Shown here: positions 242 through 22,882 of the stretch, piece after piece
Position numbering within the stretch: the first letter of the stretch is position 1
How the letters are laid out: the number at the start of each line of letters is the position of its first letter
DNA from: Amycolatopsis sp. CA-128772
GTDB taxonomy: Bacteria; Actinomycetota; Actinomycetes; Mycobacteriales; Pseudonocardiaceae
Direction of reading: 5' to 3'
Length of the DNA stretch: 32,000 nt
Assembly (NCBI RefSeq): GCF_002904295.1
Contig: NZ_PPHG01000085.1
Span: 22,047-54,046, forward strand
The notes under the pieces: generated by a model
What the model saw: the letters and a program-made list of their open reading frames with translations, nothing else
Databases searched by the model: none
Told to the model about the DNA's origin: nothing
Translations under genes and position numbers: made by a program

Positions 242-2511
<2,270 letters not shown>

Positions 2512-2587: not shown

Positions 2588-3382
2588 GTGGTCGTCTTCG
2601 CGGGTCAGGGCGACGCCCGGCGGTCCATGGAACTGCTGTGGGGGCCTCGGGTGGGCGCGCCGCGCACGGGCCCGGGGCCCAAGCCGGGCCTGTCGGTGGA
2701 GGCGATCGTCGCGGCGGCGATCGGCATCGCGGACGCCGAGGGCATGGCGGCGCTGTCGATGCGTTCGGTGGGCGAGCGCCTCGGCCGGACCGCGATGGCG
2801 CTCTACACGTACGTCCCGGGCAAGACCGAGCTGGTCGACCTGATGTACGACCGGACGCTGGGCGAGCTGCCGTCGTCGTTCCCGGCGGTCGGCGGCTGGC
2901 GCCCGGCGGCGCTGGCGCTGGCCGAGGCGTTGTGGGAGCTGCACCTGCGGCACCCGTGGCTGCTGCAGGTTTCGCCGGCGCGGCCGGTGCTCGGGCCGGG
3001 GGAGTTCCACGTGCAGGAGACGCTGCTGTCCGTCCTCGCGGAGACCGGGCTGCCGCTGCCGCGGGTCCGGTGGGTGGTGGCGGCGTTGTTCAACGTCGTC
3101 CGCGGCTCGGTGCAGGCGGCGGCGGAGTCCCGGCAGGCCGCGACCGAAACCGGACAGTCCGAAGAGGACTGGTGGTCCGCGCGGTCGGCGTTGCTGGGCG
3201 AACTGGTCCCGGACCTGACCGCGCGCTTCCCGACGGTGGCGCGGCTCGGTGCGGAGGGTGCCTACGAGCCGTCCGACGAGCCCTACCTGGAGCGGGAGGC
3301 GCGGCTGTCGTTCGAGGCCGGGGTGGAGCTGCTGCTCGACGGCGTCGAAGCGGCGATCGTCAAGGCTTCCGGGCCTCGATGA
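2588..3382 (+). CDS. TetR/AcrR family transcriptional regulator
   Basis: N-terminal HTH pattern LSVEAIVAAAIGIADAEGMAALSMRSVGERLGRTAMALYTYVPGKTELVDLM. Good RBS (AAGGAG) before GTG 2588. Divergent from the UvrA-like gene. An alternative start is ATG 2627. Confidence 0.85.
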   Translation: MVVFAGQGDARRSMELLWGPRVGAPRTGPGPKPGLSVEAIVAAAIGIADAEGMAALSMRSVGERLGRTAMALYTYVPGKTELVDLMYDRTLGELPSSFPAVGGWRPAALALAEALWELHLRHPWLLQVSPARPVLGPGEFHVQETLLSVLAETGLPLPRVRWVVAALFNVVRGSVQAAAESRQAATETGQSEEDWWSARSALLGELVPDLTARFPTVARLGAEGAYEPSDEPYLEREARLSFEAGVELLLDGVEAAIVKASGPR

Positions 3383-4304
3383 GGAACCTCGTCGTGCGGG
3401 CGGCGAACGGGCCGTCACGCTCGATCCGCTCGTGCAGCTCCCGCAGCTTGTCCCGGTACGGCCCGACGGTGAACCCGGGGACCATCCAGATCACCTTGCG
3501 CAGGAAGTAGACCACCGCCCCGATGTCGGAGAACTCGGTGCGCAGCGACTCCGAGCGCAGGTCGGCCACTCGCAGGCCCGCCGCTTCGGCTTCTCGCACG
3601 GCCCGGTCGGGGTGACGGCTCTGACGCGCTTCTTCGGGTTGGGCGCCGAGGAAGAACTCGACCAGCTCGAACACGCTCGCCGGGCCGACCTGCTGCGAGA
3701 AGTAGCTCCCGCCGCCGCGCAGGACGCGGGCGATCCCGGGCCAGTCCGTCGTCACCGGGTGCCGGCTGGAGACGAGGTCGAACACGTCGTCGCCGAACGG
3801 GATGCCGTCGGTGGCCACGACGACGACCCCGCGCGGGCGAAGGCGGGCCGAAGCGCGAGCCACGTTCGGCGGCCAGGACTCGGTCGCGGCCATCAGCGGC
3901 GGCAGGGCCGGGCAGCCGTCGAGCACCTCGCCGCCGCCGGTTTCGAGGTCGAGGGCGGTTTCGACCTGGGCGAGCCGGGCGCCCAGCAGCCGCTGGTAAC
4001 CCCAGGAAGGCCGCTCCTCGGTGGCGCGGCCGTCCAGCCAGGAGAAGTCCCAACCGTCGACCGACACGGCTTCGGCCTCGGCGACCAGCTCGTCGAACCG
4101 CGACTTCCGGACCGGCGGCGGGGGCACCGGCTTGGCCAGCGTGACCGCGTCGAACGCCACCACGACCGGGCCGCGGCGGGTCTCCACCGTGCACGTCGTC
4201 CCGTCGCGGGCGGTCAGGTTCCCGAGCGCGTCGGTGAAGCCGCCCTCGATGCGGTAGCGGACGACGACCCGCGTGCCGAGCGGCAGCTCCCGCAGCAGCT
4301 TCAC
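3360..4304 (-). CDS. class I SAM-dependent methyltransferase with a small N-terminal extra domain
   Basis: This is the C-terminal 314 aa of the 380-aa track ORF. The start is placed at GTG 4304 (VKLLRELPLG...), overlapping the TGA of the upstream gene (tcac 4301-4304). SAM motif I-like LDLETGGGEVLDG is present. The Arg/Pro-rich N-terminal extension in the track looks non-coding. Confidence 0.7.
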   Translation of the reverse strand: MKLLRELPLGTRVVVRYRIEGGFTDALGNLTARDGTTCTVETRRGPVVVAFDAVTLAKPVPPPPVRKSRFDELVAEAEAVSVDGWDFSWLDGRATEERPSWGYQRLLGARLAQVETALDLETGGGEVLDGCPALPPLMAATESWPPNVARASARLRPRGVVVVATDGIPFGDDVFDLVSSRHPVTTDWPGIARVLRGGGSYFSQQVGPASVFELVEFFLGAQPEEARQSRHPDRAVREAEAAGLRVADLRSESLRTEFSDIGAVVYFLRKVIWMVPGFTVGPYRDKLRELHERIERDGPFAARTTRFLIEARKP

Positions 4305-4531
4305 AGGCGCGCGCTGAGCTCGTCGTCCGACGGCTCGACGAGGAACGAACCGTCCTCCCAGACGATCGTCGGGATCCGGCGGGCGCCGTCCTGCAGCTCG
4401 CGGACCCGCTGCTCGGCGGCCGCGTCGGCTTCGACGTCCACATAGGAGTACTCGACGCCTTCGCGGTCGAGCAGCGCGCGGCTGCGCTTCACGTCCGGGC
4501 ACCAGCTCGCGCCGTACACCGTCAGCTTCAC
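4301..4531 (-). CDS. glutaredoxin/mycoredoxin-like protein, monothiol variant
   Basis: Only the last 76 aa of the 754-aa track ORF look real: VKLTVYGASWCPDVKRSRALLDREGVEYSYVDVEADAAAEQRVRELQDGARRIPTIVWEDGSFLVEPSDDELSARL. This is a thioredoxin-fold beta-alpha-beta start with WCPDV (single Cys) where mycoredoxin/NrdH proteins have CxxC, and a cis-Pro motif (IPTIV). GTG 4531 overlaps the upstream TGA (tcac 4528-4531). Confidence 0.75.
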   Translation of the reverse strand: MKLTVYGASWCPDVKRSRALLDREGVEYSYVDVEADAAAEQRVRELQDGARRIPTIVWEDGSFLVEPSDDELSARL

Positions 4532-6633
4532 GAAACTACCTCCGTAACCGGGGTTTCCACCGGGGCGTGCCCCAACTCTGCCAGCCAGCCGCGGAACACC
4601 CGGTGCAGGGCCTCCGCGCCGACGACCTCGCCCGGGACCGCGAACTCGCGCGGGTGCACCACGAACCCGTGCTGCTGCGGGCCGCCCAGGCCGCCGTGCG
4701 AGCCCACGTGCGTCTCGAACGGCGATGCCTGGTCCGAGTCCGGGTCGTACCGGCTGTTGATCATCACGTCCGCGCAGTGCGGGAACGTGTCGACCCGGCG
4801 GATCAGGTCCGCGGCGTGCGGGCCGTAGGGCAGGAGCGGGTCTTCGCCGATCACCACGCCCGTCGCCAGCCGGTGCAGGCCGTCGCGGCCCAGCACCACC
4901 GGGCCGGACTCGCGGCTCGAGACCAGCAGGAACCCGACGCCCGGGTGGTCCACCAGCGACGGCAGCAGGTCCGGGTGCTCGCGCTCGATCGTCTCCAGCT
5001 CGACGCGGCCTTCGTGCTCGGTGAACGACACCATCGCGATGTGCCCCGACACGACCACCACCACGCCGGGCGCCACCCGGGTGACCGCGCCGGGCGAGCC
5101 GGACGTCGTGCGCGGGGAGTCTTCGGCGCACTCCGCGTCCGCCACGCGGGCGCGCAGCCGGCGGGCGATCGGGCCGCCGCTCTTCGTCGCCTCCGCCAGG
5201 GCCGCGTTGATCTGCCAGCTCTCGGCCTGGCGCCGCTTGCCGGCGGACGGCGACGGCGTGCCACCGCAGAGCCGTCCGACGCACGCCTCGATCGTCTCGC
5301 CGAAGCGCTGCGAGAACGCCTGGCCCTGGGTCTGGCCGTGGTCCGACAGCGCCACCACGTGGTAGCGGCGCGGCGCCAGCCGGCTCGCCCGGTGCAGCCG
5401 CGCGATCTGCTGGTCGATCGAGCGAAGCACCGACAGCGTGTCGAACCGCTCGATGCCGGAGTGGTGCGCGACCTCGTCGTAGCCGAGGAAGTCCGCGTAC
5501 ACCACGGGCCGGCCGGCCAGCATGTCGCCGAGGATCGCCGACACGACGACGTCCCGCGCGATCACCGTCGTGCCCGGCCGGGCGAGGGGGTACCAGCCGC
5601 CGCGCGGCACCCGCGGCACGACACCGGCGCGGCGCTGGCGCACCGACGCGTTGATTTCGCGGAAGACGTCGGCGAGGGCGACGGCGAGCGTGCGCAGCGC
5701 GTTGACCGGGTTCGCGAAGTAGGCGTAGTAGCCCGCGCCGAGCCGGTCGCGGTGCCGGCGCAGCAGCTTCTTCGGCACCAGCACCGGGATCGAGCTCATG
5801 GTGAGGCTGACGTGGCCGGCGTCGCCGGAGAACAGGTTGCCGCGGCTCGCGCCGTCGCCGGCCAGCAGCCCGCGCCCGTCCGAATGGCGCCGCTCGATCT
5901 CGGCCGCGTCGGCCGGGTGCGCGCACGCCATCACGTGGTCGCGGTCCTTTTCGTACCAGCGGAACCCGAGGATGTCGTGGTTGGAGCCGTGCAGGATGCC
6001 GCAGACGCTCGCGCCGGTCTGCGAGCTCCAGTCGGTGTGCCAGCGGGTCAGCGCGTGGCTGCCCTCGGCGAGCCAGGCGGCGAACGTCGGCATGTCGCCG
6101 TCGCGGACCGCGCGGCGGACGGTGTCGAAGCCGAGGCCGTCGATCTGCAGGAACAACACGCCGGGCGGCTGGTCCGCGGTTCCGGCGGCGGGCGCGTGGC
6201 GCCGGCGGCGGCGGGCGGCCCGGCGGAAGAAGATCTCGTCCTCGTCGATGGCCAGCAGGCTGGAGATGAGCGCGCCGACCGCGGCCATGCCGAGCGTCAC
6301 GATCACCGCGGTCCGGAACCCGGCCACCTCGACCCCGGGTACCGTGCGGAACACCGTTAGCGTCCCGGCGCCGATCAGCAGGAACCCGGAGAGGCCGAAG
6401 GTGAAGAACGCCAGCGGGTAGGCGATCCGCATGACCAGCGGCCAGCCGACGGCGGCGAGCAGGCCGAGCAGCAGCGCGCACACCGCCGGCTGCCACCAGT
6501 GCGTCATCCGGAACCCGGGCAGCAGCACGTCGAGCAGGCGCAGCGCGCCGGTCACCGCGACCCACACGCCCAGCGCGCGGGCCACGGCCCGGCCGCCGCG
6601 CAGCAGCCGGCCCTTCGGCGCCGTCGTCGTCAC
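4528..6633 (-). CDS. membrane-anchored alkaline-phosphatase-superfamily (type I phosphodiesterase/nucleotide pyrophosphatase-like) protein
   Basis: The start is placed at GTG 6633 (VTTTAPKGRLL...), overlapping the DedA stop (tcac 6630-6633). The N-terminal ~150 aa has about four hydrophobic helices and resembles a holin-like membrane module. An AlkP-core-like region follows (VLFLQIDGLGFD, WSSQTGAS, DFLGYDEVAHHSG, ALSDHGQ, THVGSHGGLGG). Confidence 0.75.
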   Translation of the reverse strand: MTTTAPKGRLLRGGRAVARALGVWVAVTGALRLLDVLLPGFRMTHWWQPAVCALLLGLLAAVGWPLVMRIAYPLAFFTFGLSGFLLIGAGTLTVFRTVPGVEVAGFRTAVIVTLGMAAVGALISSLLAIDEDEIFFRRAARRRRRHAPAAGTADQPPGVLFLQIDGLGFDTVRRAVRDGDMPTFAAWLAEGSHALTRWHTDWSSQTGASVCGILHGSNHDILGFRWYEKDRDHVMACAHPADAAEIERRHSDGRGLLAGDGASRGNLFSGDAGHVSLTMSSIPVLVPKKLLRRHRDRLGAGYYAYFANPVNALRTLAVALADVFREINASVRQRRAGVVPRVPRGGWYPLARPGTTVIARDVVVSAILGDMLAGRPVVYADFLGYDEVAHHSGIERFDTLSVLRSIDQQIARLHRASRLAPRRYHVVALSDHGQTQGQAFSQRFGETIEACVGRLCGGTPSPSAGKRRQAESWQINAALAEATKSGGPIARRLRARVADAECAEDSPRTTSGSPGAVTRVAPGVVVVVSGHIAMVSFTEHEGRVELETIEREHPDLLPSLVDHPGVGFLLVSSRESGPVVLGRDGLHRLATGVVIGEDPLLPYGPHAADLIRRVDTFPHCADVMINSRYDPDSDQASPFETHVGSHGGLGGPQQHGFVVHPREFAVPGEVVGAEALHRVFRGWLAELGHAPVETPVTEVVS

Positions 6634-7211
6634 ACCCGCTCCTTGGTCCGGCGCCGCCACCGGGCGATCAGGTTGGTCAGGACGGTCACCAGCAGGACCA
6701 GCACCGTCGCCAGCAGCGTCGCGATGAGCGGCGAGTCGAAGATGCCGCCGCTGACGATGCCGAGCACCGCGTACGCGCACGCCCAAAGCACGCACGCGCC
6801 GAGCGCCGCGGGCAGCAGGCGCCGCCACGGGTAGCTCAGCGCGGCCGCCGCGAGCAGCACCGGGATGCGCCCGGCCGGGACGAGCCGGCCGATCACGACG
6901 AGCTGCCAGCCGCGCCGGGCGAACTGGTCGCGGGCCTTCTCGAGCCGTTCGGCCGGCTGGCGGCGGCTGATCCAGCGGAACGCGGCTTCGCTGCCCAGGC
7001 GCGGGATCCCGAACGTCACGACGTCGCCGAGGTACGCGCCGAGCACGGCGAGCACGATGACCAGCGGCAGGGACAGGTGGCCCGTGGTGGTGGCGACCGC
7101 GGCCGCGGCGCCGACGACCGCGCCGGTGGGCACGACCGGCACGATCGAGCCGAGCAGCACGCCGCCGAACACCGCCGGGTACCCGACAGCGGCCGGGTCC
7201 GTCCAGTTCAC
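6630..7211 (-). CDS. DedA/VTT-domain family membrane protein
   Basis: The start is placed at GTG 7211 (VNWTDPAAVGYPAVFGG...), overlapping the MBL gene stop (tcac 7208-7211). It is 193 aa and multi-pass hydrophobic, with the DedA-like pattern GxxLGDxxxF...R and RLVPAGRIPV. The upstream 174 aa of the track ORF are Arg/Pro-rich junk. Confidence 0.75.
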   Translation of the reverse strand: MNWTDPAAVGYPAVFGGVLLGSIVPVVPTGAVVGAAAAVATTTGHLSLPLVIVLAVLGAYLGDVVTFGIPRLGSEAAFRWISRRQPAERLEKARDQFARRGWQLVVIGRLVPAGRIPVLLAAAALSYPWRRLLPAALGACVLWACAYAVLGIVSGGIFDSPLIATLLATVLVLLVTVLTNLIARWRRRTKERV

Positions 7212-7990
7212 GCGCGGTCCGTCGGCGCGGGCAGCACGACGTCGGCGCCGGGCTCGGTGAACAGCACCTCGGTGTGGCCGTTCGCCTCGGCCGCGAACAC
7301 GCGCGGCGGGTCGGCCAGCAGCCGCCGCATCCGCGCGGTGCGCCGGACGCCGGGGAGGGCGAGGGTGCCCCAGTGCACGGGGACGGCCGCCCGGGCGTGC
7401 ACCAGCCCGGCGGCCCGCGCGGCGCGGGCGGGGTCGAGGTGCCCGGGGCCGAGGTTCGGCCCCCAGCCCCAGACGGGCAGCAGGGCGACGTCGACCGGGC
7501 CGAGGTCGCGCATGCCGTCGAAGAGGTCGGTGTCGCCCGCGTTGTAGACCTTCCGGCCGTCGCCCTCGATGAGGTGCCCGAGCGCGGGACTCTGCGGCCC
7601 GTGGGTCAGGCGCGGCCCCCAGCGGTGTCCGGAGTGGACGGCTTCGGTGGCGGTGACGGTCAGGCCGCCCTCGGTGAGCGTCTCCCCGGGCGCGATCTCT
7701 TCGACGCGCTCGAAGCCCTTGCTGCGCAGCCACGACCCGGCCCCGCGGGGGACGACGATCCGGGGCCGCGTGCCGAGCAGTCTCAGCGACGGCAGGTGCA
7801 GGTGGTCGCCGTGCAGGTGGGAAAGCAGGACGAGATCGACGTCGGCGTAGCTCGCCGGCGCCGGCACGGGAACCACCCGGACGAGCCCGCCGACGCGCGC
7901 GGTGAGCACGGGATCGGTCAGCACGACCCGGCCACCGAGTTCCAGGCGGACGGTCGAATGGCCGAGGAATCGCAGGCTGAAGCCGCTCAC
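7208..7990 (-). CDS. MBL-fold metallo-hydrolase
   Basis: LRFLGHSTVRLELGGRVVLTDP followed by the metallo-beta-lactamase motif LLSHLHGDHL, and later AGDTD and HWGT. The start is placed at GTG 7990 (VSGFSLRFLGHST), with GGAGGTGA about 10 nt upstream. Confidence 0.8.
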   Translation of the reverse strand: MSGFSLRFLGHSTVRLELGGRVVLTDPVLTARVGGLVRVVPVPAPASYADVDLVLLSHLHGDHLHLPSLRLLGTRPRIVVPRGAGSWLRSKGFERVEEIAPGETLTEGGLTVTATEAVHSGHRWGPRLTHGPQSPALGHLIEGDGRKVYNAGDTDLFDGMRDLGPVDVALLPVWGWGPNLGPGHLDPARAARAAGLVHARAAVPVHWGTLALPGVRRTARMRRLLADPPRVFAAEANGHTEVLFTEPGADVVLPAPTDRA

Positions 7991-8050
7991 GTCCCGAGTA
8001 TCACCTCCACCGGCGGGGAACGCCCGGCGGAGTGGCCAGGGCAACGCCGT

Positions 8051-10725
<2,675 letters not shown>

Positions 10726-12704: not shown

Positions 12705-13583
12705 TCAGGGAAGGTAGGGGCCGGCCAGCAGGTCGAGGCGGTCGCGGTCGCAGTCCGACATCGAGGCCGCGTTCGACATGATTGCCTGGGACAAAGCGTC
12801 CTGGCAGTCGCACGTTCGCTCCTCCCGTGGCGCCGCCGTCAGGTTGCGGATCGCCTGCTGGGCCGCGGCCACGTTCCTGCGCATCACCTCCGCCACCATC
12901 GTCGCCGTCACCGGGGCTTCGTCCTGCCGCCAGCAGTCGTAGTCCGTCACCAGGGCGATCGTGGCCAGGCAGAGCCCCGCCTCGCGGGCCAGTTTCGCCT
13001 CCGGGGCCGCCGTCATGCCGACGATGTCCATGCCCAGCGCGCGGTTCAGGTCGGACTCCGCCCGCGTCGAAAACTGCGGGCCCTCGATGCACAGGTACGT
13101 GCCCGAGCCGTGCGAGGCGACCCCCGGCACGGTGCTCACCGCGGTGAGCACCTGCCGGCGCAGCCGTGGGCAGAACGGCTCCGCGAACGGGAGGTGCGCC
13201 ACCAGGCCGCGGTCGAAGAACGTCGACGTGCGGCCCTTGGTGAAGTCGACGAGCTGGTCCGGGACGACCAGCTCGCCCGGGCGCAGGTGGTCGCGCATGC
13301 TGCCGACCGCGCTCACGCTGACCAGCTCGCGGACGCCGAGGTACTTCATCGCGTAGATGTTCGCCGCCGCCGGTATGGCCGCCGGGGAATGCTGGTGGTG
13401 CCTTCCGTGGCGGGCCAGGAATGCGACCCGCCTGCCGTCGAGGTCGCCGACCACCACCGCGTCGCTCGGATTTCCGAACGGGGTGGACAGCCGGAATTCG
13501 CTGACGTTCCCGAGGCCCGGGAAGTCGTAGAGCCCGCTGCCGCCGATGATGCCGATCTCGGCCTCGACCGAGTTGGTCGCCAT
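12705..13583 (-). CDS. flB: 5'-fluoro-5'-deoxyadenosine phosphorylase (MTAP-family purine nucleoside phosphorylase, FlB-like)
   Basis: 292 aa with MTAP-type motifs: IGIIGGSGLY, FLARHGRHH, VSAVGS, VGMTAAPEAKLAREAG, VTDYDCW. It is divergently adjacent to ahcY and the fluorinase gene, as flB is in the S. cattleya fl cluster (recalled). Substrate assignment comes from context only. Confidence 0.8.
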   Translation of the reverse strand: MATNSVEAEIGIIGGSGLYDFPGLGNVSEFRLSTPFGNPSDAVVVGDLDGRRVAFLARHGRHHQHSPAAIPAAANIYAMKYLGVRELVSVSAVGSMRDHLRPGELVVPDQLVDFTKGRTSTFFDRGLVAHLPFAEPFCPRLRRQVLTAVSTVPGVASHGSGTYLCIEGPQFSTRAESDLNRALGMDIVGMTAAPEAKLAREAGLCLATIALVTDYDCWRQDEAPVTATMVAEVMRRNVAAAQQAIRNLTAAPREERTCDCQDALSQAIMSNAASMSDCDRDRLDLLAGPYLP

Positions 13584-13764
13584 AACCGCTCCCGCCTCTC
13601 GGCAGATGGAAAGTCGTTGCCCGGCAGGGGGATCCGGCCGCCGGGTGCCCGTGCCGCGATCCTAGCAACGGGAAGCTCGGGCGCGGAATGTGCGGATGAG
13701 GGTAGGCCGGCTCCGACGATGGTCGTAGGCGCGGTGCCGAAGGTGGTGTTTTCCCGCGGATTCA

Positions 13765-13829: not shown

Positions 13830-15272
13830 GTGCCGACCGGAGTTCCCCACCGAGTAGCCGACCTGTCCCTCGCCGGGTTCGGCCGCAGAGAGATCACCCT
13901 CGCCGAGGACGAAATGCCCGGGCTGATGGCCGTGCGCGCGGAACACGCCGCCGCGCGTCCGCTCGAAGGCGCCCGCATCACCGGCTCGTTGCACATGACC
14001 GTGCAGACGGCGGTGCTCATCGAAACCCTGGTCGCCCTCGGCGCCCAGGTGCGCTGGGCGAGCTGCAACGTCTTCTCGACGCAGGACCACGCCGCCGCGG
14101 CGGTCGTCGCCGGTCCGCACGGCACGGCCGAGGACCCCGCGGGCGTGCCCGTGTTCGCCTGGAAGGGCGAGACGCTCGAAGAGTACTGGTGGGCGGCCGA
14201 GCAGGCGCTCACCTGGCCCGGCGGCGAAGGGCCGAACATGCTGCTCGACGACGGTGGCGACGCCACCATGCTGGTGCACAAGGGCGTCGAGTTCGAGAAG
14301 GCGGGCGAGGTGCCGCCGGCGTCCACAGCGGACTCGGCGGAACACGCGGCGTTCCTGGAGCTGCTGCGCTCGTCGATCGCCGGGCAGCCGGGCAAGTGGA
14401 CCGCGATCGCCGGCCGGGTCCGCGGGGTCACCGAAGAGACCACCACCGGCGTGCACCGGCTCTACCGGATGGCCGAGGCCGGCGAGCTGCTGTTCCCGGC
14501 GATCAACGTCAACGACTCGGTGACGAAGTCGAAGTTCGACAACCGCTACGGCATCCGCCACTCCCTGATCGACGGCATCAACCGCGGCACCGACGTGCTG
14601 ATCGGCGGCAAGGTCGCGGTGGTCTGCGGCTACGGCGACGTCGGCAAGGGCTGCGCGGAGTCGTTGCGCGGGCAGGGTGCGCGGGTCGTCGTCGTGGAGA
14701 TCGACCCGATCTGCGCGCTGCAGGCCGCGATGGACGGCTTCCAGGTGACCACCCTCGACGAAATCGCGGGCGTGGGCGACATCTTCGTGACCGCCACCGG
14801 CAACATCGGCGTGATCACCGTGGACACGCTGGCGCGCATGAAGAACCACGCGATCGTCGGCAACATCGGGCACTTCGACAACGAGATCGACATGGCCGGG
14901 CTGGCCGCCGTGCCGGGTGTCGTGCGCACGAACGTCAAGCCGCAGGTCGACGAATGGCGGTTCCCGGACGGCCACGCCGTCATCGTCCTGTCCGAGGGCC
15001 GGCTGCTCAACCTCGGGAACGCGACCGGGCACCCGTCGTTCGTGATGAGCAACAGCTTCACCAACCAGGTCATCGCGCAGATCGAGCTGTTCACCCGCCC
15101 CGAGGCGTACCCGGTCGGCGTGCACACCCTCGCCAAGCGGCTCGACGAAAAGGTCGCCCGCCTGCACCTGGCCGCGCTCGGGGTGAAGCTCAGTACGCTG
15201 ACCCCGGAGCAGGCCGAGTACCTCGGGGTTCCGGTGGAGGGCCCCTACAAACCCGGGTACTACCGCTACTGA
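13830..15272 (+). CDS. ahcY: adenosylhomocysteinase (SAH hydrolase; FlI-like position in the cluster)
   Basis: 480 aa, canonical along its length: [57 protein letters not shown]-binding [19 protein letters not shown]-terminal KPGYYRY. GTG 13830 follows a GGAGAAAGGA RBS. Confidence 0.95.
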
Positions 15273-15290
15273 ACGCGGCCGAAATCGTCC

Positions 15291-15325
15291 CGTCCCGGCG
15301 GCACGCACGCCGGGGCGGGCTTTTT
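15291..15325 (+). terminator. intrinsic-terminator-like hairpin after ahcY
   Basis: Stem CGTCCCGGCG (15291-15300) / CGCCGGGGCG (15308-15317) is 10 bp with one G-U pair and a 7-nt loop. It is followed by GGC and TTTTT (15321-15325). Confidence 0.55.
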
Positions 15326-15417
15326 CCTGCCGTGGAAAGTGGTATCCGAAAACTGCGACCATCCGCCTGCCGTCCTGCATCCAATGGCCACATTTCCGGT
15401 GGGTCGACCGGTTTTCC

Positions 15418-16391
<974 letters not shown>

Positions 16392-16424
16392 CCGCACGCG
16401 CTCCGCCCTTCCGGAAAGGTCGTC

Positions 16425-17819
16425 ATGTCCCTCCAATCCGCCGACCTCGCCCGGCTGCTGGTCGCGATGGCGATGCTGCTGACGGTCGCGCACCTGGGCG
16501 CCCGGCTGTGCACGCTGCTGCGCCAGCCGCCGGTGATCGGCGAGATACTGGGCGGGCTGCTGCTCGGCCCCACCGTGCTGGGCCTGATCGCACCGGGCGC
16601 CGCGAGCGCCCTGCTGCCGAAGGCCGGCGTCACCCCGGTGGGGCTGGGCGTGCTCCAGGAACTCGGCCTGCTGCTGCTGATGTTCCTGTCCGGCCGTGAG
16701 GTGCTCGCCTCCCGCACCACCGCGCGCCGCCGGACCGTCGTCGCGGTGGCGCTGAGCGGGCTGGTCCTCCCGTTCGCGGCGGCGATGGCGAGCGTCGGGC
16801 TGTTCGACCACACCGCCTATTCCGGCCCGCACGGCACCCGGCTGACGTTCGTGCTGGTGTTCGGGATCGGGATCGCGGTGACGAGCATCCCGGTGATCTC
16901 GCGGATCATGCTCGACCTCGACCTGCTGCACACGCGGTTCGCCAGGGTGGTGCTTTCCGTGGCCCTGCTGGAGGACGTCGTCCTGTACGTCACACTCGCG
17001 GTGATCCTCGGTCTCGTGCAGGGCGCCGCCGCGCCGGTGTTCGGGCTGTGGTCGCTCGTCGGCGTGCCGGACATCGGCCTCACCACGGCGTACTACGTGA
17101 CGGCGAGCCTCGTGCTGTTCGCGGTGTTCATGCCGTGGGGCCGGAAGATCTTCGCGGTACTGGCGCACAACCGGTTCAACTTCGTCGAGCGGCGCAGCGC
17201 GACGGCGTTCCGGCTGCTGTTCCTGCTGGTGCTGGTGCTGGTGTGCGTGTTCATCGGCGTCAACCCGGTGTTCGGGGCCATCCTCGCCGGGGTGTCGGCG
17301 GCCGGCGCGGACGCCGACGACACCGACGTGCGCCGCCGCGAGCAGGCCGAGCACGCCTGGGACGCGCTGAAGAAGGTGTCGCTGGCGCTGTTCATCCCGC
17401 TCTACTTCGCGGTCGTCGGGCTGCAGCTGGACCTGGTGCACCACCTGTCGGTCGGCTTCTTCCTCGCCTACCTGCTGCTCGCGTGCGTCACGAAGACCGT
17501 GAGCGTCTGGCTGGGCGCGCGGGTGGCCGGCGAGCCGCCGCGCAGCGCGGTCGACCTGGCGATCGCGCTCAACGCCCGTGGCGGGCCCGGTATCGTGCTC
17601 GCCACGGTGACGTTGTCGGCCGGGGTGATCAACGAGGATTTCTTCACCGTGCTGGTGATCCTGTCGATCCTGACTTCGCAGGCCGCCGGGCTCTGGCTGC
17701 AGCACGCCGGAGTGGGCGGCGAAACCGGGCGGCCGCACCGCATCCGGGAGAACGGCGGCGCACCGGGGAGAACCGCCGAAACGGATCCGGCGGAAAGCGA
17801 CCGGGCCGTCCGCGGCTGA
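16425..17819 (+). CDS. flH: cation:proton antiporter (Na+/H+ exchanger fold; FlH-like)
   Basis: 464 aa polytopic membrane protein with the typical CPA N-terminus ([39 protein letters not shown]) and about 12 hydrophobic segments. It starts 34 nt after the flA stop with a GGAAAGG RBS. The same gene type sits in the S. cattleya fl cluster (flH, recalled). Confidence 0.85.
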
Positions 17820-17954: not shown

Positions 17955-18085
17955 GGCATTGCCGGACGGCCGGTCGGTGCCGCACACTGGAATGCATTAC
18001 GGGGGCGTTCTCGAAATCGGATCCAGCGCCGTTCGCGCTGTGGCGAATGCGTCCCGTCGGAAATTTCGAAGCGCGGGAGGCGATT

Positions 18086-19273
18086 GTGCCCGATCGGCTG
18101 TTCACGTCCGAATCGGTGACCGAGGGACATCCCGACAAGCTGGCGGACCAGATCAGCGACGCCGTCCTGGACGCGGCCCTGCGGGCCGATCCGGCGGCGC
18201 GGGCCGCGGTCGAAACCCTGGTGACCACCGGGATGGTGCACGTCGCCGGCGAGGTGAGCCGGGTCCCGGACGACGTCGTGGGCCTGGTCCGCGAGACGAT
18301 CCTCGACGTCGGTTACGACTCCGTGCGCCGCGGGTTCGACGGGGCCGCGTGCGGGGTCCAGGTTTCGCTCGGCCGGCAGTCGCCGGACATCGCCCAGGGC
18401 GTCGAACGGTCGCTGGAGACCCGGCAGGGCGACGGGGCCGGGCTCGACCACCAGGGTGCGGGGGACCAGGGCATGATGTTCGGTTACGCCTGCGACGAAA
18501 CCCCGGAGCTGATGCCGCTGCCGATCGTGCTGGCGCACCGGCTCGCCGAGCGGCTGGCGCGGGTGCGCCGCCAGGGCGTCCTGCCGTTCCTCGGCCCGGA
18601 CGGCAAGACCCAGGTGACGATCGCCTACCAGGACGGGCGGCCGCTGCGGCTGGACACCATCGTGGTCTCCACCCAGCACGACGCCGGGATCGACCTCGAG
18701 ACGACGCTGACCCCGGCGGTGGCCGCGGAGGTCGTCCGGCCGGAGCTGGCGCGGCTGGACCTCACCGCGACGGGCTTCCGGCTGCTGGTCAACCCGAGCG
18801 GGCGGTTCGAGCTCGGCGGCCCCGCGGCGGACACCGGACTCACCGGGCGGAAGATCATCATCGACACCTACGGCGGGATGGCCCGCCACGGCGGCGGTGC
18901 GTTCTCCGGCAAGGACCCCTCGAAGGTCGACCGGTCCGCCGCCTACGCGGTGCGCTGGGCGGCGAAGAACGTCGTCGCGGCCGGCCTCGCCGCGCGGTGC
19001 GAAATCCAGGTGGCGTACGCGATCGGGCGGGCCGCGCCGGTGTCGCTGCTCGTCGAATGCTTCGGCACCGAGAAGGCGCCGGTCGACCAGATCCGCGCCG
19101 CCGTCGAAGCGGTCTTCGACCTGCGCCCGGCCGCGATCATCCGCGACCTGGACCTGTGCCGCCCCCGGTACCGGGCCACGGCCGCCTACGGGCACTTCGG
19201 CCGCGTCGACGGCGATTTCCCCTGGGAACGGGTCGATCGGGCCGGCGCCCTGCTGGCCGCCGTGCGGAGCTGA
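18086..19273 (+). CDS. metK: S-adenosylmethionine synthetase, cluster-situated
   Basis: This is the C-terminal 395 codons of the 741-aa track ORF. GTG 18086 follows a GGGAGG RBS (18075-18080). Canonical motifs: [55 protein letters not shown]. An alternative in-frame start is ATG 18047. Confidence 0.92.
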
Positions 19274-19276
19274 GCC

Positions 19277-19846
19277 GTGACCGCGACCGGCTCACTCGCC
19301 CGTACCGTTGCCGCCTCGTTGCGGGCGTACCCCGGCTTCCCGGAACCCGGTGTGCTGTTCCAGGACCTCGGTCCGCTCTACGCCACCCCCGGCCTGCTGA
19401 CCGAGCTCGCGTCCGCGGTGATCGACCGGTACGCCGGCGCGTTCGACGCGGTGGCGGCGATCGAGGCCCGCGGGTTCGTCCTCGGCGCCGCGGTCGCCCA
19501 GCAGGCCCGAAAACCCCTTGTGCTGGCCCGGAAAGCCGGCAAGCTGCCCGGCGAGCTGCACACGGTGACGTACTCGCTGGAATACGGCGAAGCCGTGCTG
19601 CAGACGCAGGCCGGGGTGTTCGCGCCCGGGGTGCGGGTGCTGCTCGTCGACGACGTGCTCGCCACTGGTGGCACGCTCGCCGCCGCGGGCCGGCTCGTGG
19701 AGCTCGGCGGCGGCCGGGTCGCCGGTTACGCCGTCGTGGTGACGATCGCGCCGCTCGGCGGTCCGCGGCGGCTGGCGGGCATCCCCGGCTTCAGCGTGCT
19801 CACCCTGCCCGGCGAAAACGCCGATGGCGCCGGCGATCCGCCGTAG
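19277..19846 (+). CDS. apt: adenine phosphoribosyltransferase
   Basis: 189 aa: YPGFPEPGVLFQDLGPL, IEARGF.LGAAVA, and the PRPP-binding motif VLLVDDVLATGGT. GTG 19277 lies 3 nt after the metK stop, so the two are probably co-transcribed. Confidence 0.9.
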   Translation: MTATGSLARTVAASLRAYPGFPEPGVLFQDLGPLYATPGLLTELASAVIDRYAGAFDAVAAIEARGFVLGAAVAQQARKPLVLARKAGKLPGELHTVTYSLEYGEAVLQTQAGVFAPGVRVLLVDDVLATGGTLAAAGRLVELGGGRVAGYAVVVTIAPLGGPRRLAGIPGFSVLTLPGENADGAGDPP

Positions 19847-19990
19847 CCGTCGACGTCCGGCCCGGCGCGTCGGTAGAGTGGAAAATCAGGGGTGTCTTCC
19901 TCGCTCCCGTGCGCCGGACGGCCGGTGAGCTCGCCCCGCGTAGTCATCGCCTCGCAACTGCCGCGTGTTCCCAGGGGGAGGTCGTTTTTC

Positions 19991-20668
19991 GTGAAAGCGC
20001 TCAAGGACTGCATGAGTGTCGTCGTCATCGACCGGTACCGGCTGTTCCGCCAGGGAATCATGCAGATCATCTCCGTCGAGGAGGACTTCCGCGTGGTCGG
20101 TGAATGCGGTTTCGGCAAGGACGGCATCACGCTGATCGGGGAGCGCCAGCCCGATCTGGTCCTGCTCGACAGCGACCGCGGCGGCGCGCAGGCGGTGGGC
20201 ATGCTGCGCGGTGTGCTGCTGGTGTCACCGGGTTCGAAGGTCGTGGTGGTCACCGCCCACGACGCGCCCCGGCTCGTCGCCGACCTGATCGCCGCCGGTG
20301 CGCACGCCTACCTGCTCAAGAACGCGACCCGCGAGGAGCTGCTCGTCACGCTTCGCACGGTTTACCGCGATTCGGGCAACGTGGTCGTTTCGGTGCCCCG
20401 GGAAACGTTGCGGGGGATGCACGAACCGGAGCACGTCCTGCTCTCGCGGCGGGAGGCCGAGGTGCTCGGCCTGGTCGCGGTCGGGATGCGCAACTCCCAG
20501 ATCGCGCTCGAGCTCTACATTTCCGAGGGCACCGTCAAGCGGCACCTCACCAACGCCTACGCCAAGCTGGGCGTCGAATCCCGGATCAGCGCGGTCAAGA
20601 AAGCGATCACGCTGGGAATCGTGTCGCTCGACGAGGTCTTCGACGCCGGGGAAACGGTCGGCAAGTGA
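19991..20668 (+). CDS. LuxR/NarL-family response regulator, atypical receiver (regulator 1)
   Basis: Receiver-like N-domain (VVVIDRYRLFRQG...DLVLLDSD...VVVVTAHD...AYLLKN) plus a C-terminal LuxR HTH ([45 protein letters not shown]). Start is uncertain: GTG 19991 has GGGGAGG 9 nt upstream; ATG 20012 is the alternative. The usual DD acidic pair is DR here. Confidence 0.8.
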   Translation: MKALKDCMSVVVIDRYRLFRQGIMQIISVEEDFRVVGECGFGKDGITLIGERQPDLVLLDSDRGGAQAVGMLRGVLLVSPGSKVVVVTAHDAPRLVADLIAAGAHAYLLKNATREELLVTLRTVYRDSGNVVVSVPRETLRGMHEPEHVLLSRREAEVLGLVAVGMRNSQIALELYISEGTVKRHLTNAYAKLGVESRISAVKKAITLGIVSLDEVFDAGETVGK

Positions 20669-20807
20669 CGGGTGTGCCGGGGTTGTCACGGTGAAGCGGG
20701 GCAAAGCCGGGGTTTTCCGGCGCGAATAGCGGTGGCGGCAACTCGAATGGGCTAACCGTCCGGTTGTACTTTCTTACTGAATCTTCAACCTTGCGCCGGA
20801 GTTGTGG

Positions 20808-20820
20808 ACTGTGCCACAGT
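20808..20820. promoter_or_regulatory. perfect palindrome between the two regulator genes (candidate operator)
   Basis: ACTGTGcCACAGT (arms 6-1-6) lies in the 237-bp lower-GC spacer, about 85 nt upstream of ATG 20906. Confidence 0.3.
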
Positions 20821-20905
20821 GGAAGTGGATTGGGGGCCCGGATCATCGCGCGGGAGAACCGCGGCACCTGCCTCCTTTCGGTGTGCCAAAGCGGGGTGGC
20901 AGTCC

Positions 20906-21568
20906 ATGGGGACCGGAACGGGTGTCATCAGTGTCGTGGTGATCGACGATCAGCAGCTGTCCCGGCAGGGCATGATCGAATTGCTGGCCGCCGAACCGGG
21001 CATCGAAGTCGTGGGGGACGGTGTGCTCGGCGACGCCGAGACCCTCGCCATGCGGCTGCGGCCGGACATCGTGCTGCTGGACGGCGAAGTCGGCGACGGC
21101 CACGTGGTCGCCGGGGTGGACGGCCTCGCCCGGGCGGCCCCGGCCGCCAAGCTGGTCGCGGTGATCGAGCACGACGACCCGCGCTTCGTCGGCACCTTGA
21201 TTTCGGCGGGGGCCCACGCCTACGTGCTGCGCAGCGCGACGCGTGACGAGCTGCTGGTGACCCTCCGTGCGGTGCACCGCGATTCCGGGCACGTCGTGGT
21301 CTCGTTGTCCCGGGCGAAATGGCAGGGGATGAACGGCACCGGCGAGCGCATTCTTTCCCAGCGGGAACGCGAGGTCATCATGCTCGTCGCGGCCGGGATG
21401 AAGAACGCCGAAATAGCGGGCCGGATGTTCATTTCGGAAGGCACCGTGAAGCGGCACCTGACCAACGTCTACAACAAACTCGGGGTGGCTTCCCGGATGG
21501 CGGCGGTGAAGAAGGCCGCCGCGCTCGGCATCGTTTCCTTCGGCGACTCCGCGCCGTCGGACGGCTGA
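20906..21568 (+). CDS. LuxR/NarL-family response regulator, degenerate receiver (regulator 2; paralogue of regulator 1)
   Basis: [13 protein letters not shown]...DIVLLDGE...LVAVIEHDD...AYVLRS, then [45 protein letters not shown]. It aligns by eye with regulator 1 along its whole length. The conserved receiver Thr/Ser and Lys positions read Ile and Arg. The start is placed at ATG 20906. Confidence 0.8.
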
Positions 21569-21909
21569 TGAGGCGGCACCCGCGGCACAGCCTGGCGGCA
21601 CCGGTGCTCCGCTTGACGATCTTCGTCGGCCGCGAGCTGTGGCACCACCGCCCGGTCGTGCACGAGATCGTCCGCCGCGCCCACCGCGCCGGGCTGGCCG
21701 GGACGTCGGTGTTCCCCAGCATCGAAGGGTTCGGGCGCAGCGCGCGGATCCACGACCTCGGCCGGCTGCGCCTGGCCGAAGGAACCGGGTACCTGGTGGT
21801 GGTCGTGGACACCGAGGACCGCGTGCGCGCGTTCCTGCTGGACCTCGACGAGCTGCTCACCGACGGCCTGGTCACGCTCGAACCGGTGGAGGTGATCGGC
21901 CGGCGCTGA
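21568..21909 (+). CDS. flJ: DUF190 family protein (FlJ-like; family usually linked to crcB fluoride channels)
   Basis: 113 aa: [49 protein letters not shown]...[34 protein letters not shown], matching the DUF190 pattern I recall (IY.GE.D...GKPLY..I.......G..GATV.RGI.GFG....IH). ATG 21568 shares one base with the regulator-2 stop (TGATG at 21566-21570). Confidence 0.85.
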
Positions 21910-21916
21910 AGGGTGT

Positions 21917-22882
21917 TCAATCGTGCGGCCGGGGCCCGGCCCCGGCGAGGCGCCGGTTCCGCCGGGCCGGTCCGGCTTCGCGGCCGGTCATGAGCCGCCC
22001 GATCAACGCGGCGCCGACGATCAGGACCCCGCCGGCGACCTGAAGCGGGCCGAGGAGCTCGCCCGCCAGCAGGACCGCGAACAGCGCGGCGAACACCGGT
22101 TCGGTGGACAGGATGATGCCCACCCGCGCGGAACCGCCGATGCGGGCGCTGCGCAGCTGGGCGAAGAAGGCGAAGGACGTCCCGAGCACGCCGAGGTAGC
22201 CGATGAGCAGCCAAGTGGAGCCGGTGAGCTGCCCGATCCGTTCCGGTACGCCGGTTTCGAACGCCGCCGACGCGACGCCGGCGAGCAGGGTCACCACGAC
22301 GAATTCGACGAACGTGATGTTGACCAGCGACTGCGGCCCGCTGCGGGCCGAACCGCGGCCGAAGAGGGTGATCTGGAACCCGCGGATCAGCGCCGCCCCG
22401 AGGATGATCAGGTCGCCGAGCTGGGGCCGGAAGCCGTGGGCGAGCGAGAGCAGCCCGCAGCCGGCGAGGCCGCACAGCGTGGCGACGTAGACGAGCGCGT
22501 GGTAGCGGCGCCGGAAGAGGGCCCACTCGAACAACGGGATCAGCACCACGGACACCGTGATGAGGAAGCCCGCGTTCGCGGCGCTCGTGAACCGGACGCC
22601 GGCCGTTTCGCAGGCCAGGACGCCGAAGAGGAGCGTGCCGAACAGCGCTCCCGACCGGACTTCGTGGGCGGTCAGCGCCCGCAGGGAACGCCGTCCCATC
22701 ACCGCGATGACCGGCAGCGAGCACACGAACCGCAGGGCCAGGAACGCCATCACCGGCAACGAATGGCCGACGATCTGCATGACGACGTAGGTCGAGCCCC
22801 AGATGACCGCGACGAGCACGATGGAGACGTCGCTGATCACCAGGGCGCGCTGATCGGCCACCGGATCGTCGAGCTGCTGCAT
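21917..22882 (-). CDS. EamA/DMT-superfamily transporter (FthC-like putative 4-fluorothreonine exporter)
   Basis: 321 aa taken from ATG 22882 (MQQLDDPVADQRALVISDVSIVLVAVIWGSTYVV...), with GAGGGGGA upstream. It has about 10 TM segments in two EamA-like repeats. The rest of the 694-aa track ORF is an artefact that overlaps the isomerase gene frame. Confidence 0.8.
   Translation of the reverse strand: MQQLDDPVADQRALVISDVSIVLVAVIWGSTYVVMQIVGHSLPVMAFLALRFVCSLPVIAVMGRRSLRALTAHEVRSGALFGTLLFGVLACETAGVRFTSAANAGFLITVSVVLIPLFEWALFRRRYHALVYVATLCGLAGCGLLSLAHGFRPQLGDLIILGAALIRGFQITLFGRGSARSGPQSLVNITFVEFVVVTLLAGVASAAFETGVPERIGQLTGSTWLLIGYLGVLGTSFAFFAQLRSARIGGSARVGIILSTEPVFAALFAVLLAGELLGPLQVAGGVLIVGAALIGRLMTGREAGPARRNRRLAGAGPRPHD

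Follow-up and report, generated by a model that had tools for sequence, protein, structure and literature searches.

A 32-kb stretch of Amycolatopsis sp. CA-128772 DNA (32,000 nucleotides with a G+C content of approximately 72%, referred to below as the window) was analyzed for the function of three same-strand genes, two of which encode NarL/LuxR-type regulators, here called regulators 1 and 2, and the third of which encodes a protein of the DUF190/UPF0166 family. Gene calls were the open reading frames (ORFs) of the window that were supported by codon bias, and their products were then scanned against Pfam. By its predicted gene content, the window is a complete Amycolatopsis-type fluorometabolite (fl) cluster of the fluoroacetate/4-fluorothreonine kind. 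The genes that mark such clusters are those for the fluorinase, the 5'-fluoro-5'-deoxyadenosine (5'-FDA) phosphorylase, the isomerase, and the 4-fluorothreonine transaldolase, together with the resistance genes fthB and fthC, and the corresponding domains (SAM_HAT, PNP_UDP_1, IF-2B, SHMT plus Aldolase_II, tRNA_edit, and EamA) were all detected, the enzymes themselves being predicted. The fluorinase gene lies 3.6 kb upstream of the regulator genes. Relatives of its product with 80 to 95% identity were found at 19 loci in actinomycete genomes, among them loci of Nocardia brasiliensis and Amycolatopsis bartoniae; the closest relative, at 95%, was that of Amycolatopsis melonis. The positions of the three genes and of the other features are given in Table 1.

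Table 1. The three genes under study, their neighbors, and candidate regulatory DNA in the window, followed by the mini-kinase genes of related loci (numbered within each locus)
Feature	Position	Strand	Basis or remark
Regulator 1 (NarL/LuxR)	19991/20012-20668	+	Pfam Response_reg + GerE
Regulator 2 (NarL/LuxR)	20906-21568	+	Pfam Response_reg + GerE
DUF190/UPF0166 PII-like protein (FlJ-type), 113 amino acids	21568-21909	+	Pfam DUF190
Candidate operator/promoter upstream of regulator 2	20808-20825	+	palindrome ACTGTG-C-CACAGT (20808-20820) overlapping GTGGAAG box (20819-20825)
GTGGAAA box upstream of regulator 1	19878-19884	+	one of five same-strand RTGGAAR boxes
5'-FDA phosphorylase-type purine nucleoside phosphorylase (PNP)	12705-13583	-	
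S-adenosylhomocysteine (SAH) hydrolase	13830-15272	+	
Fluorinase (FlA)	15495-16391	+	Pfam SAM_HAT_N + SAM_HAT_C; defines the cluster
Na+/H+ exchanger	16425-17819	+	
S-adenosylmethionine (SAM) synthetase	~18050-19273	+	
Adenine phosphoribosyltransferase	19277-19846	+	
EamA transporter	21917 to ~22900	-	
IF-2B-type isomerase	22951-24084	-	
SHMT + aldolase fusion, 4-fluorothreonine transaldolase type	24141-26000	+	
tRNA-editing protein	26002-26574	-	
FlF-like HTH_3 + Cupin_2 regulator	26961-27623	+	Pfam; third transcription factor of the cluster
Mini-kinase, Microbispora rosea (L010)	14650-15345	-	
Mini-kinase, metagenome-assembled genome (L016)	989-1636	+	
Mini-kinase, metagenome (L022)	9003-10004	+	

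Both regulators carried a receiver (PF00072) and a helix-turn-helix (HTH) domain (PF00196) that scored above the Pfam cut-offs, which places them in the NarL/FixJ (LuxR-type) family. Regulator 1, read from 20012 to 20668, scored 50.2 bits for Response_reg and 62.3 bits for GerE, and regulator 2 scored 32.4 bits for Response_reg, a narrow margin over the cut-off of 30.2, and 71.3 bits for GerE. Their best matches in the PDB were VraR, DesR, NarL, and DevR. A preliminary description of this DNA had called the two proteins paralogous along their whole length, and they did align end to end, with 53% identity over 208 amino acids (E = 2e-70). The phosphorylation pocket was read at the positions of NarL D13, D14, D59, S87, and K109 from an alignment to NarL, CheY, and response regulators of the PDB. 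With the acidic pair, the phosphoryl-accepting Asp, the Thr/Ser, and the Lys given in that order, the pocket was D-R/D/T/K in regulator 1 and D-D/D/I/R in regulator 2, where the last two residues stand in VAVIEHD and AYVLRS; these are the substitutions that had been described previously. The usual MP after the Asp was missing from both proteins, which read DSDRGGA (regulator 1) and DGEVGDG (regulator 2). Neither receiver contained all five active-site residues of a canonical phosphorylatable domain, and both fit the published definition of a pseudo-receiver (PMC12632262). On that definition, and as judged from their sequences, regulators 1 and 2 count as response regulators of the atypical, pseudo-receiver kind.

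The AlphaFold2 model of regulator 2 contained an intact (beta-alpha)5 receiver as well as the HTH domain, with a mean pLDDT (predicted local distance difference test) of 86 and values of approximately 95 across most of the receiver. The ratio of nonsynonymous to synonymous substitution rates (dN/dS) of the receiver, measured against orthologues, was 0.13 to 0.18 for regulator 1 and 0.16 to 0.21 for regulator 2, and the values for the DNA-binding halves were similar. Because the regulator 2 model folds with confidence and receiver dN/dS is low, the degenerate receivers are predicted to be working parts of these proteins still, functional domains that are held under purifying selection. The start of regulator 1 is most likely GTG 19991, judging from a GGGGGAGG Shine-Dalgarno sequence that precedes it and is conserved in A. 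melonis and from the length of its orthologues, 225 to 226 amino acids; ATG 20012 is the alternative.

The regulators were compared with their relatives through a homologue search with regulator 2, pocket signatures, and a neighbor-joining tree, and a second search brought in the FlG proteins of Streptomyces. In the tree, the window regulators fell into one clade with other fluorinase-linked regulators. Homology to FlG and the fluorinase gene in the same cluster mark both as FlG-type, and because Streptomyces cattleya FlG is 38 to 39% identical to both (39% to regulator 1), the two appear to be lineage-specific duplicates that are co-orthologous to it. Pockets within this larger clade were diverse. 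Closer members of the regulator 2 type read x-x/D/I/R, with an acidic pair that decays to DG, HG, DN, DS, or DR; the outer members P0017 and L002 keep the Thr, and the Asp itself has become Q in P0007 and E in L002. Members of the regulator 1 type read D[RNK]/D/T/K with DSDRGG after the Asp, and in most of them the second residue of the acidic pair, a helper in holding Mg2+, is thus R, N, or K. Also in the larger clade were regulators of Actinoallomurus (DR/D/A/K), of N. brasiliensis (NobG, DE/S/G/K), and of a metagenome-assembled genome (L005, DD/G/A/K). The phospho-Asp was missing from both S. cattleya FlG (DD/G/L/Q) and FlL (DP/A/A/T), and Streptomyces xinghaiensis FlG read DA/G/L/R. A sister clade had the canonical DDDTK pocket followed by DVEMPG and included the fluorinase-linked regulators of Microbispora and Streptosporangiaceae, the closest relatives with intact DDDTK being in Streptosporangiales fl clusters. 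As read from these sequences, pocket erosion extends widely through the FlG-type regulators of the sampled fl clusters and takes varied forms.

Two further observations concern these relatives. One canonical-pocket FlG-type regulator, P0053 (L020:10001-10918), has no adjacent kinase and is 305 amino acids long, approximately 85 to 90 more than is typical. In the S. cattleya locus (L031, CP003219.1), where the FlG, FlL, and FlE observations refer to coordinates 5279-5956, 8601-10705, and 15857-16525, flE encodes a receiver-only protein, in which no Pfam family matched the N-terminal region.

No HisKA or HATPase_c domain was found in any codon-bias-supported ORF of the window, and tblastn searches of the window with four HisKA_3 kinases encoded in related loci gave nothing below E = 4.6, which agrees with the earlier statement that the window contains no histidine kinase. 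Within these 32 kb, neither regulator is accompanied by the cognate kinase that would be expected of a two-component system. A different arrangement was found in three related loci (L010, L016, and L022; Table 1), in which a kinase of approximately 200 amino acids, consisting of HisKA_3 and HATPase_c, is encoded directly upstream of a canonical-pocket regulator. These mini-kinases have no sensor domain and share the H-box RALSRE(I/M/L)HD, and in L022 the kinase gene overlaps the start of the regulator gene. Neither the window nor any of the loci whose regulator is degenerate was found to contain a mini-kinase gene. The simplest history suggested by these comparisons is that the cluster once had a miniature two-component system, that the kinase was lost, and that the pocket was then eroded by lineage-specific routes. 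Phosphorylation-independent control of both regulators is well supported, if indirectly, by these comparative data. The preliminary description had proposed a phosphorylation-independent unit with DUF190 as its partner protein, and the first part of this proposal was strengthened by the recurrent erosion of FlG-type pockets, by the restriction of mini-kinases to loci with canonical pockets, and by the purifying selection on the receivers; for the second part, the partner role of DUF190, the evidence is one of association.

The association begins with the gene order. The regulator 2 stop codon (TGA, 21566-21568) and the DUF190 start codon (ATG, 21568-21570) form the TGATG overlap at 21566-21570 that had been described before, and in 7 of the 7 contexts that could be read, DUF190 was the next gene on the same strand after a regulator 2-type gene (one further contig ends just past the regulator gene and was excluded from this count). 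The overlap is TGATG in the window and in A. melonis (L001) and ATGA in two metagenome contexts (L024 and L033/L034). In the remaining three, the DUF190 gene has its own Shine-Dalgarno sequence, after a gap of 30 nucleotides in Amycolatopsis sp. H20-H5 (L023), of 45 nucleotides in a metagenome (L025), and of short length in A. bartoniae (L002). The public gene call for the window DUF190 is 101 amino acids, which implies a start at GTG 21604. The overlapping ATG is kept in L001, L024, and L033/L034, and L024 has no alternative start, so that a start at ATG 21568, giving the 113-amino-acid form that overlaps the regulator 2 stop codon, is supported by the orthologous sequences. Regulator 2 and DUF190 are probably made from the same message by coupled translation. 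The branching order of the DUF190 proteins linked to regulators broadly matched that of the regulator 2 clade in neighbor-joining trees, and the pair is intact away from fluorinase genes in L023 and L024, where it heads a nonribosomal peptide synthetase (NRPS) operon. Several genomes keep the two paralogous regulator genes adjacent; the regulator 1 gene of Amycolatopsis sp. H20-H5 is on a different contig from the regulator 2-DUF190 pair. DUF190 had previously been tied to both atypical regulators, and this held for regulator 2, through the gene pair conserved in all seven contexts, but not for regulator 1, which showed no such link.

The NRPS operon behind the pair is itself a conserved cassette (L023:3533-11186 and L024:9780-17358) that encodes a C-A-T module, a free C domain, a major facilitator superfamily transporter, an MbtH protein, and a thioesterase. 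Its presence there invites the question whether the peptide product might incorporate a fluorinated amino acid.

The window DUF190 protein scored 86.7 bits against a cut-off of 23.4 for Pfam PF02641, and its sequence matched the PDB entries 2DCL (E = 1e-13) and 1O51 (E = 6e-11); two structural-genomics structures of the family were among the PDB matches. Its AlphaFold2 model, built as a monomer, had the beta-alpha-beta-beta-alpha-beta order of the ferredoxin-like PII fold, which identifies it as PII-like by fold. Foldseek matched the model to TM0021, CPII, GlnK, CutA, and SbtB (probability, 1.00; query-normalized TM score, 0.46 to 0.59), and the structural neighbors that followed 2DCL and 1O51 were CPII, GlnK, CutA, SbtB, and PotN. 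The nearest characterized structural relative is CPII, which according to entry titles binds ADP/AMP and the anion bicarbonate. COG1993 has been filed among the PII-like proteins, a group that acts on transcription factors and histidine kinases, among other effectors (PMC1779786). We found no functional study of DUF190, COG1993, or UPF0166 in the literature, either alone or with fluoride or crcB.

Ordinary actinobacterial DUF190 proteins were 57 to 64% identical to the window protein. Their genes lie between two crcB genes with 4-nucleotide overlaps on either side (L026:803-1712, L027:3540-4707, and L028:3537-4710), in keeping with the earlier statement that DUF190 is normally a neighbor of crcB, and these overlaps suggest a fixed stoichiometry with a heterodimeric fluoride channel. 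Neither the window nor any fl locus was found to have a crcB gene, and the window protein is not crcB associated in this sense. In a neighbor-joining tree, the regulator-linked DUF190 proteins were monophyletic and sister to the crcB-linked copies. The regulator-linked clade has lost T63, T64, D72-L73-P74, E95, L30, Y31, H36, and the C-terminal RYVGR, features with a conservation of 0.9 to 1.0 in 114 ordinary homologues, and it has a deletion of 1 amino acid before the WHH motif. On the secondary structure of the AlphaFold2 model, most of these changes map to the tail and to a long loop after beta2, whose position may be that of the T-loop in PII proteins. The DUF190 of the Microbispora fl cluster, which retains the mini-kinase, keeps the ordinary signatures. 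The flJ gene of S. cattleya was seen to encode a DUF190 protein, in line with the preliminary description; this FlJ shares 37% identity with the window protein.

We favor, tentatively and as a reading that falls somewhat short of probable, the idea that the three genes are a pathway-specific regulatory module of the fl cluster, in which kinase-free pseudo-receiver duplicates of FlG are joined by a DUF190 protein that provides the input to regulator 2. An FlG-type regulator of the NarL family would have been duplicated to give the phosphorylation-independent regulators 1 and 2, and an ancestral mini-kinase would have been lost. On the promoters of the cluster, the regulators would probably act as homodimers or heterodimers. 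Regulator 2 would be made together with the PII-like DUF190, a diverged paralogue of the DUF190 of crcB operons, and a DUF190 trimer would read a small-molecule state, for example fluoride or a metal-fluoride along with an adenine nucleotide, or else an intermediate of the pathway that carries an adenosyl group. By binding the pseudo-receiver of regulator 2, DUF190 would pass on its state and so supply the input once given by the kinase. There is precedent for such a step in the action of PII proteins on transcription factors and histidine kinases (PMC1779786). Comparative sequence data make a signal-sensing partnership of DUF190 with regulator 2 plausible, because the gene pair is conserved in all seven contexts, the trees are congruent, and the residues invariant in crcB-type proteins have been lost. 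The more specific version, in which DUF190 is a fluoride-responsive PII-like sensor that may read fluoride or Mg-fluoride with an adenine nucleotide, or an adenosyl intermediate, and that docks on the regulator 2 pseudo-receiver and replaces the lost mini-kinase, is unlikely. We dropped the idea that DUF190 took over the operon position of the kinase: the kinase gene lies upstream of the regulator gene and the DUF190 gene downstream, and Microbispora (L010) has both.

Several observations weigh against this module. The dN/dS of DUF190 is fairly high, 0.41 to 0.57, and all of the trees are neighbor-joining trees without support values. In the Streptomyces, Actinoallomurus, and Microbispora fl clusters, DUF190 is encoded away from the FlG-type regulator, so that a cluster-wide role of FlJ need not involve the regulator, and a conserved gene pair can be explained by cotranscription alone. 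Regulator 1 keeps D, T, and K, and a distant kinase or a small phosphodonor could therefore act on it. Two canonical-pocket relatives (L018 and L020) also have no adjacent kinase, which makes the absence of a kinase an imperfect predictor of erosion, although the correlation is strong.

The main rival to a signaling role for DUF190 is a role in fluoride availability, with mere coexpression of the DUF190 gene. We consider it rather unlikely. DUF190 would serve fluoride homeostasis, modulating the FlH antiporter or a fluoride channel and thereby letting fluoride in the cytosol reach the millimolar concentrations needed by the fluorinase, whose Km for fluoride is approximately 2 mM (PMC11139923). 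Its gene would stand behind that of regulator 2 only for the timing of expression, and the regulators would be constitutively active and controlled by their amount, as is thought to be the case for some atypical regulators such as VmsT (PMC12632262). Translational coupling of the ordinary DUF190 to crcB genes on both sides is what this explanation would lead one to expect, but the lack of crcB in all of the fl loci is not, and the missing invariant residues of the regulator-linked proteins would be surprising if these docked on the same channel. DUF190 does occur in the fl clusters of several genera with no adjoining regulator, and the Na+/H+ exchanger is conserved beside the fluorinase; against this, the regulator 2-DUF190 pair persists away from the fluorinase genes and ahead of an NRPS operon.

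Quite unlikely, in our estimation, is an explanation that leaves DUF190 uninvolved, in which the pseudo-receivers sense a small molecule directly, as in JadR1 and RedZ, or a heterodimer of regulators 1 and 2 acts as a coincidence detector, as in BldM-WhiI. Both mechanisms have been documented in orphan atypical regulators of actinomycetes (PMC12632262, PMC4125116), and either would fit the purifying selection on both pseudo-receivers and the retention of both paralogues next to each other in several genomes. The strict pairing of regulator 2 with DUF190 and the clade-specific divergence of DUF190 would be left unexplained. A further point against this explanation is that the two regulators are on separate contigs in H20-H5 and so need not be co-located. 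Direct sensing or heterodimer formation could possibly coexist with a role for DUF190. That the regulators belong to an ordinary two-component pair with a kinase gene at another site in the genome, and that phosphorylation still switches at least regulator 1, is very unlikely. In its favor, regulator 1 retains three of the pocket residues (phospho-Asp, Thr, and Lys), orphan response regulators are mostly typical ones (PMC12632262), and our analysis covers 32 kb of the genome. Against it, both proteins have pseudo-receivers as defined above, the residue that helps to hold Mg2+ has been replaced in most regulator 1 orthologues, regulator 2 is without both phosphoryl-contacting residues, pocket decay continues within each clade as far as the Asp itself (P0007 and L002), and none of the loci with degenerate regulators has a mini-kinase of the cognate type.

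If the three genes form a regulatory module, its targets may be marked in the DNA. Upstream of regulator 2 lies a candidate operator/promoter composed of a 6+6 palindrome, which was read directly from the sequence (a repeat search with a minimum length of 10 missed it), and an overlapping GTGGAAG box. Conservation of the block ...GGACTGTG(C/T)CACAGTGGAAGTGGATTGGGGG upstream of regulator 2 extends to A. melonis (L001) and, for the core alone, to a metagenome (L024). Boxes of the form RTGGAAR begin on the plus strand at 13606, 15332, 17923, 19878, and 20819, upstream of flI, flA, metK, regulator 1, and regulator 2, so that each of five consecutive intergenic regions contains one, a result that was obtained in 0 of 5,000 dinucleotide shuffles; the window as a whole contains 12 compared to 6 expected. 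A longer CGG(T/C)AG..TGGAA context is common to three of the sites, and at the four sites other than that of regulator 2 the motif is only partly conserved in L001. Because the motif was picked after inspection of the data and is partially conserved, these boxes are candidate targets and a lead for electrophoretic mobility shift assays, not a result. Exact k-mers common to the intergenic regions were mostly GC-rich noise. A sigma-70 scan of 19700-22100 detected no promoter-like site, and the two weak terminator-like sites in the same region were no more than shuffled sequences give. Riboswitch control has been reported to be extensive in S. cattleya (PMC11139923). An Rfam scan of the window (1-32000) at gathering thresholds found no fluoride riboswitch and no other family, and riboswitch control of the three genes is therefore unsupported.

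The cluster has a third transcription factor, the HTH-cupin protein, which is 64% identical to the product of the N. brasiliensis gene at the nobF position and is also present in L003 and L015. Since S. cattleya flF has the same set of HTH and cupin domains, the assignment of regulators 1 and 2 as FlF and FlG was dropped, FlF being the HTH-cupin protein. Just upstream of the fl genes, a minus-strand gene (8051-10378) encodes a two-domain terpene synthase of 775 amino acids, with Terpene_syn_C_2 matched in two stretches, and is accompanied by a metallo-beta-lactamase-fold gene (7208-8044); together they are probably a separate cluster. Farther upstream, the region 3250-7200 contains long overlapping ORFs on both strands, none of which passed the codon-bias filter. 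Within it, a minus-strand ORF of 766 amino acids (4528-6828) matched Phage_holin_4_2 and Phosphodiest, with a glutaredoxin-like end near 4301-4520.

Part of this picture is already known: the regulator and DUF190 content of fl clusters has been recorded, and kinase-less atypical regulators are familiar from actinomycete gene clusters. Homologues named FlG5, FlL5, FlJ5, and FlF5 have been listed for Amycolatopsis sp. CA-128772 (PMC9234330), and flG, flH, flI, and flB have been described as conserved across all actinomycete fl clusters (PMC9173684). The fl-cluster literature names these genes response regulator or DNA-binding regulatory genes (PMC9173684, PMC9234330, PMC3999930), and we found no mention in its accessible part of degenerate FlG-type pockets or of the regulator-DUF190 pairing. 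Three points seem new, namely, that the FlG-type regulators sampled are often pseudo-receivers, that the sensor-less mini-kinase was seen only beside relatives with canonical pockets, and that one FlG duplicate is locked to a neofunctionalized DUF190.

Should the version with DUF190 as a fluoride-responsive sensor docking on regulator 2 prove true, it would represent an undescribed signaling pair of a PII-like protein and a pseudo-receiver, and the first function assigned to a DUF190 protein. A 2025 review considered the switching of pseudo-receiver regulators a mystery and a major unknown (PMC12632262), and the regulator-DUF190 operon, conserved in 7 of 7 contexts, offers a concrete two-protein hypothesis for it. 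The DUF190 residues to mutate can be read from a comparison of the crcB-linked clade with the regulator-linked one. Silence is common among fluorinase clusters; the pathway of N. brasiliensis has been described as latent (PMC3999930), and S. cattleya expresses its cluster in stationary phase only (PMC11139923). Kinase-free FlG-type regulators and candidate cis elements at five units should help in cluster activation and host transfer.

The closest known system is the archetypal fl cluster of S. cattleya, which, like the window, contains genes for the fluorinase, PNP, SAH hydrolase, and Na+/H+ exchanger (PMC9173684, PMC9234330, PMC3999930). It also shares the regulatory set of two LuxR-type response regulators, a DUF190 protein, and the HTH-cupin FlF, which is not an unusual combination, and its FlG and FlL are pseudo-receivers as well. 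Unlike in S. cattleya, FlG is duplicated in the window, and both copies keep the Asp that is a Gly in S. cattleya FlG. The flJ-type gene of the window is in an operon with one FlG copy, whereas S. cattleya flJ is two genes away on the other strand, and S. cattleya flG is start/stop coupled to flH, whose stop codon its start overlaps (ATGA), instead of to the DUF190 gene. The proteins BldM-WhiI, RedZ, JadR1, PapR6, and VmsT resemble the window regulators in being orphan regulators with pseudo-receivers, and BldM and WhiI are also members of the NarL/FixJ family. Several such regulators sit in or control biosynthetic clusters, and they work without a partner kinase by forming heterodimers, by binding end products, or through regulated expression, with JadR1 and RedZ binding the end products of their pathways and BldM-WhiI being a functional heterodimer (PMC12632262, PMC4125116). 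None of these five systems is reported to have a PII-like partner, and the sole case of a protein partner in PMC12632262 is the small inhibitor MirA acting on Rem. GlnB/GlnK, SbtB, and CPII share the fold of the window DUF190 at a sequence identity of just 12 to 22%. PII proteins are small trimeric sensors of a nucleotide and a second ligand that dock on transporters, enzymes, kinases, and transcription factors (PMC1779786); the trimer, nucleotide binding at the clefts between subunits, and a flexible docking loop are features of this superfamily, and the window DUF190 was modeled as a monomer. The crcB-DUF190-crcB operons resemble the window in the 57 to 64% identity of their DUF190 and in the start/stop overlap with its neighbors, but those neighbors are fluoride-channel subunits, whereas the neighbor in the window is a transcription factor, and the T-T, D-L-P, and RYVGR motifs of the crcB-linked proteins have been lost in the window clade.

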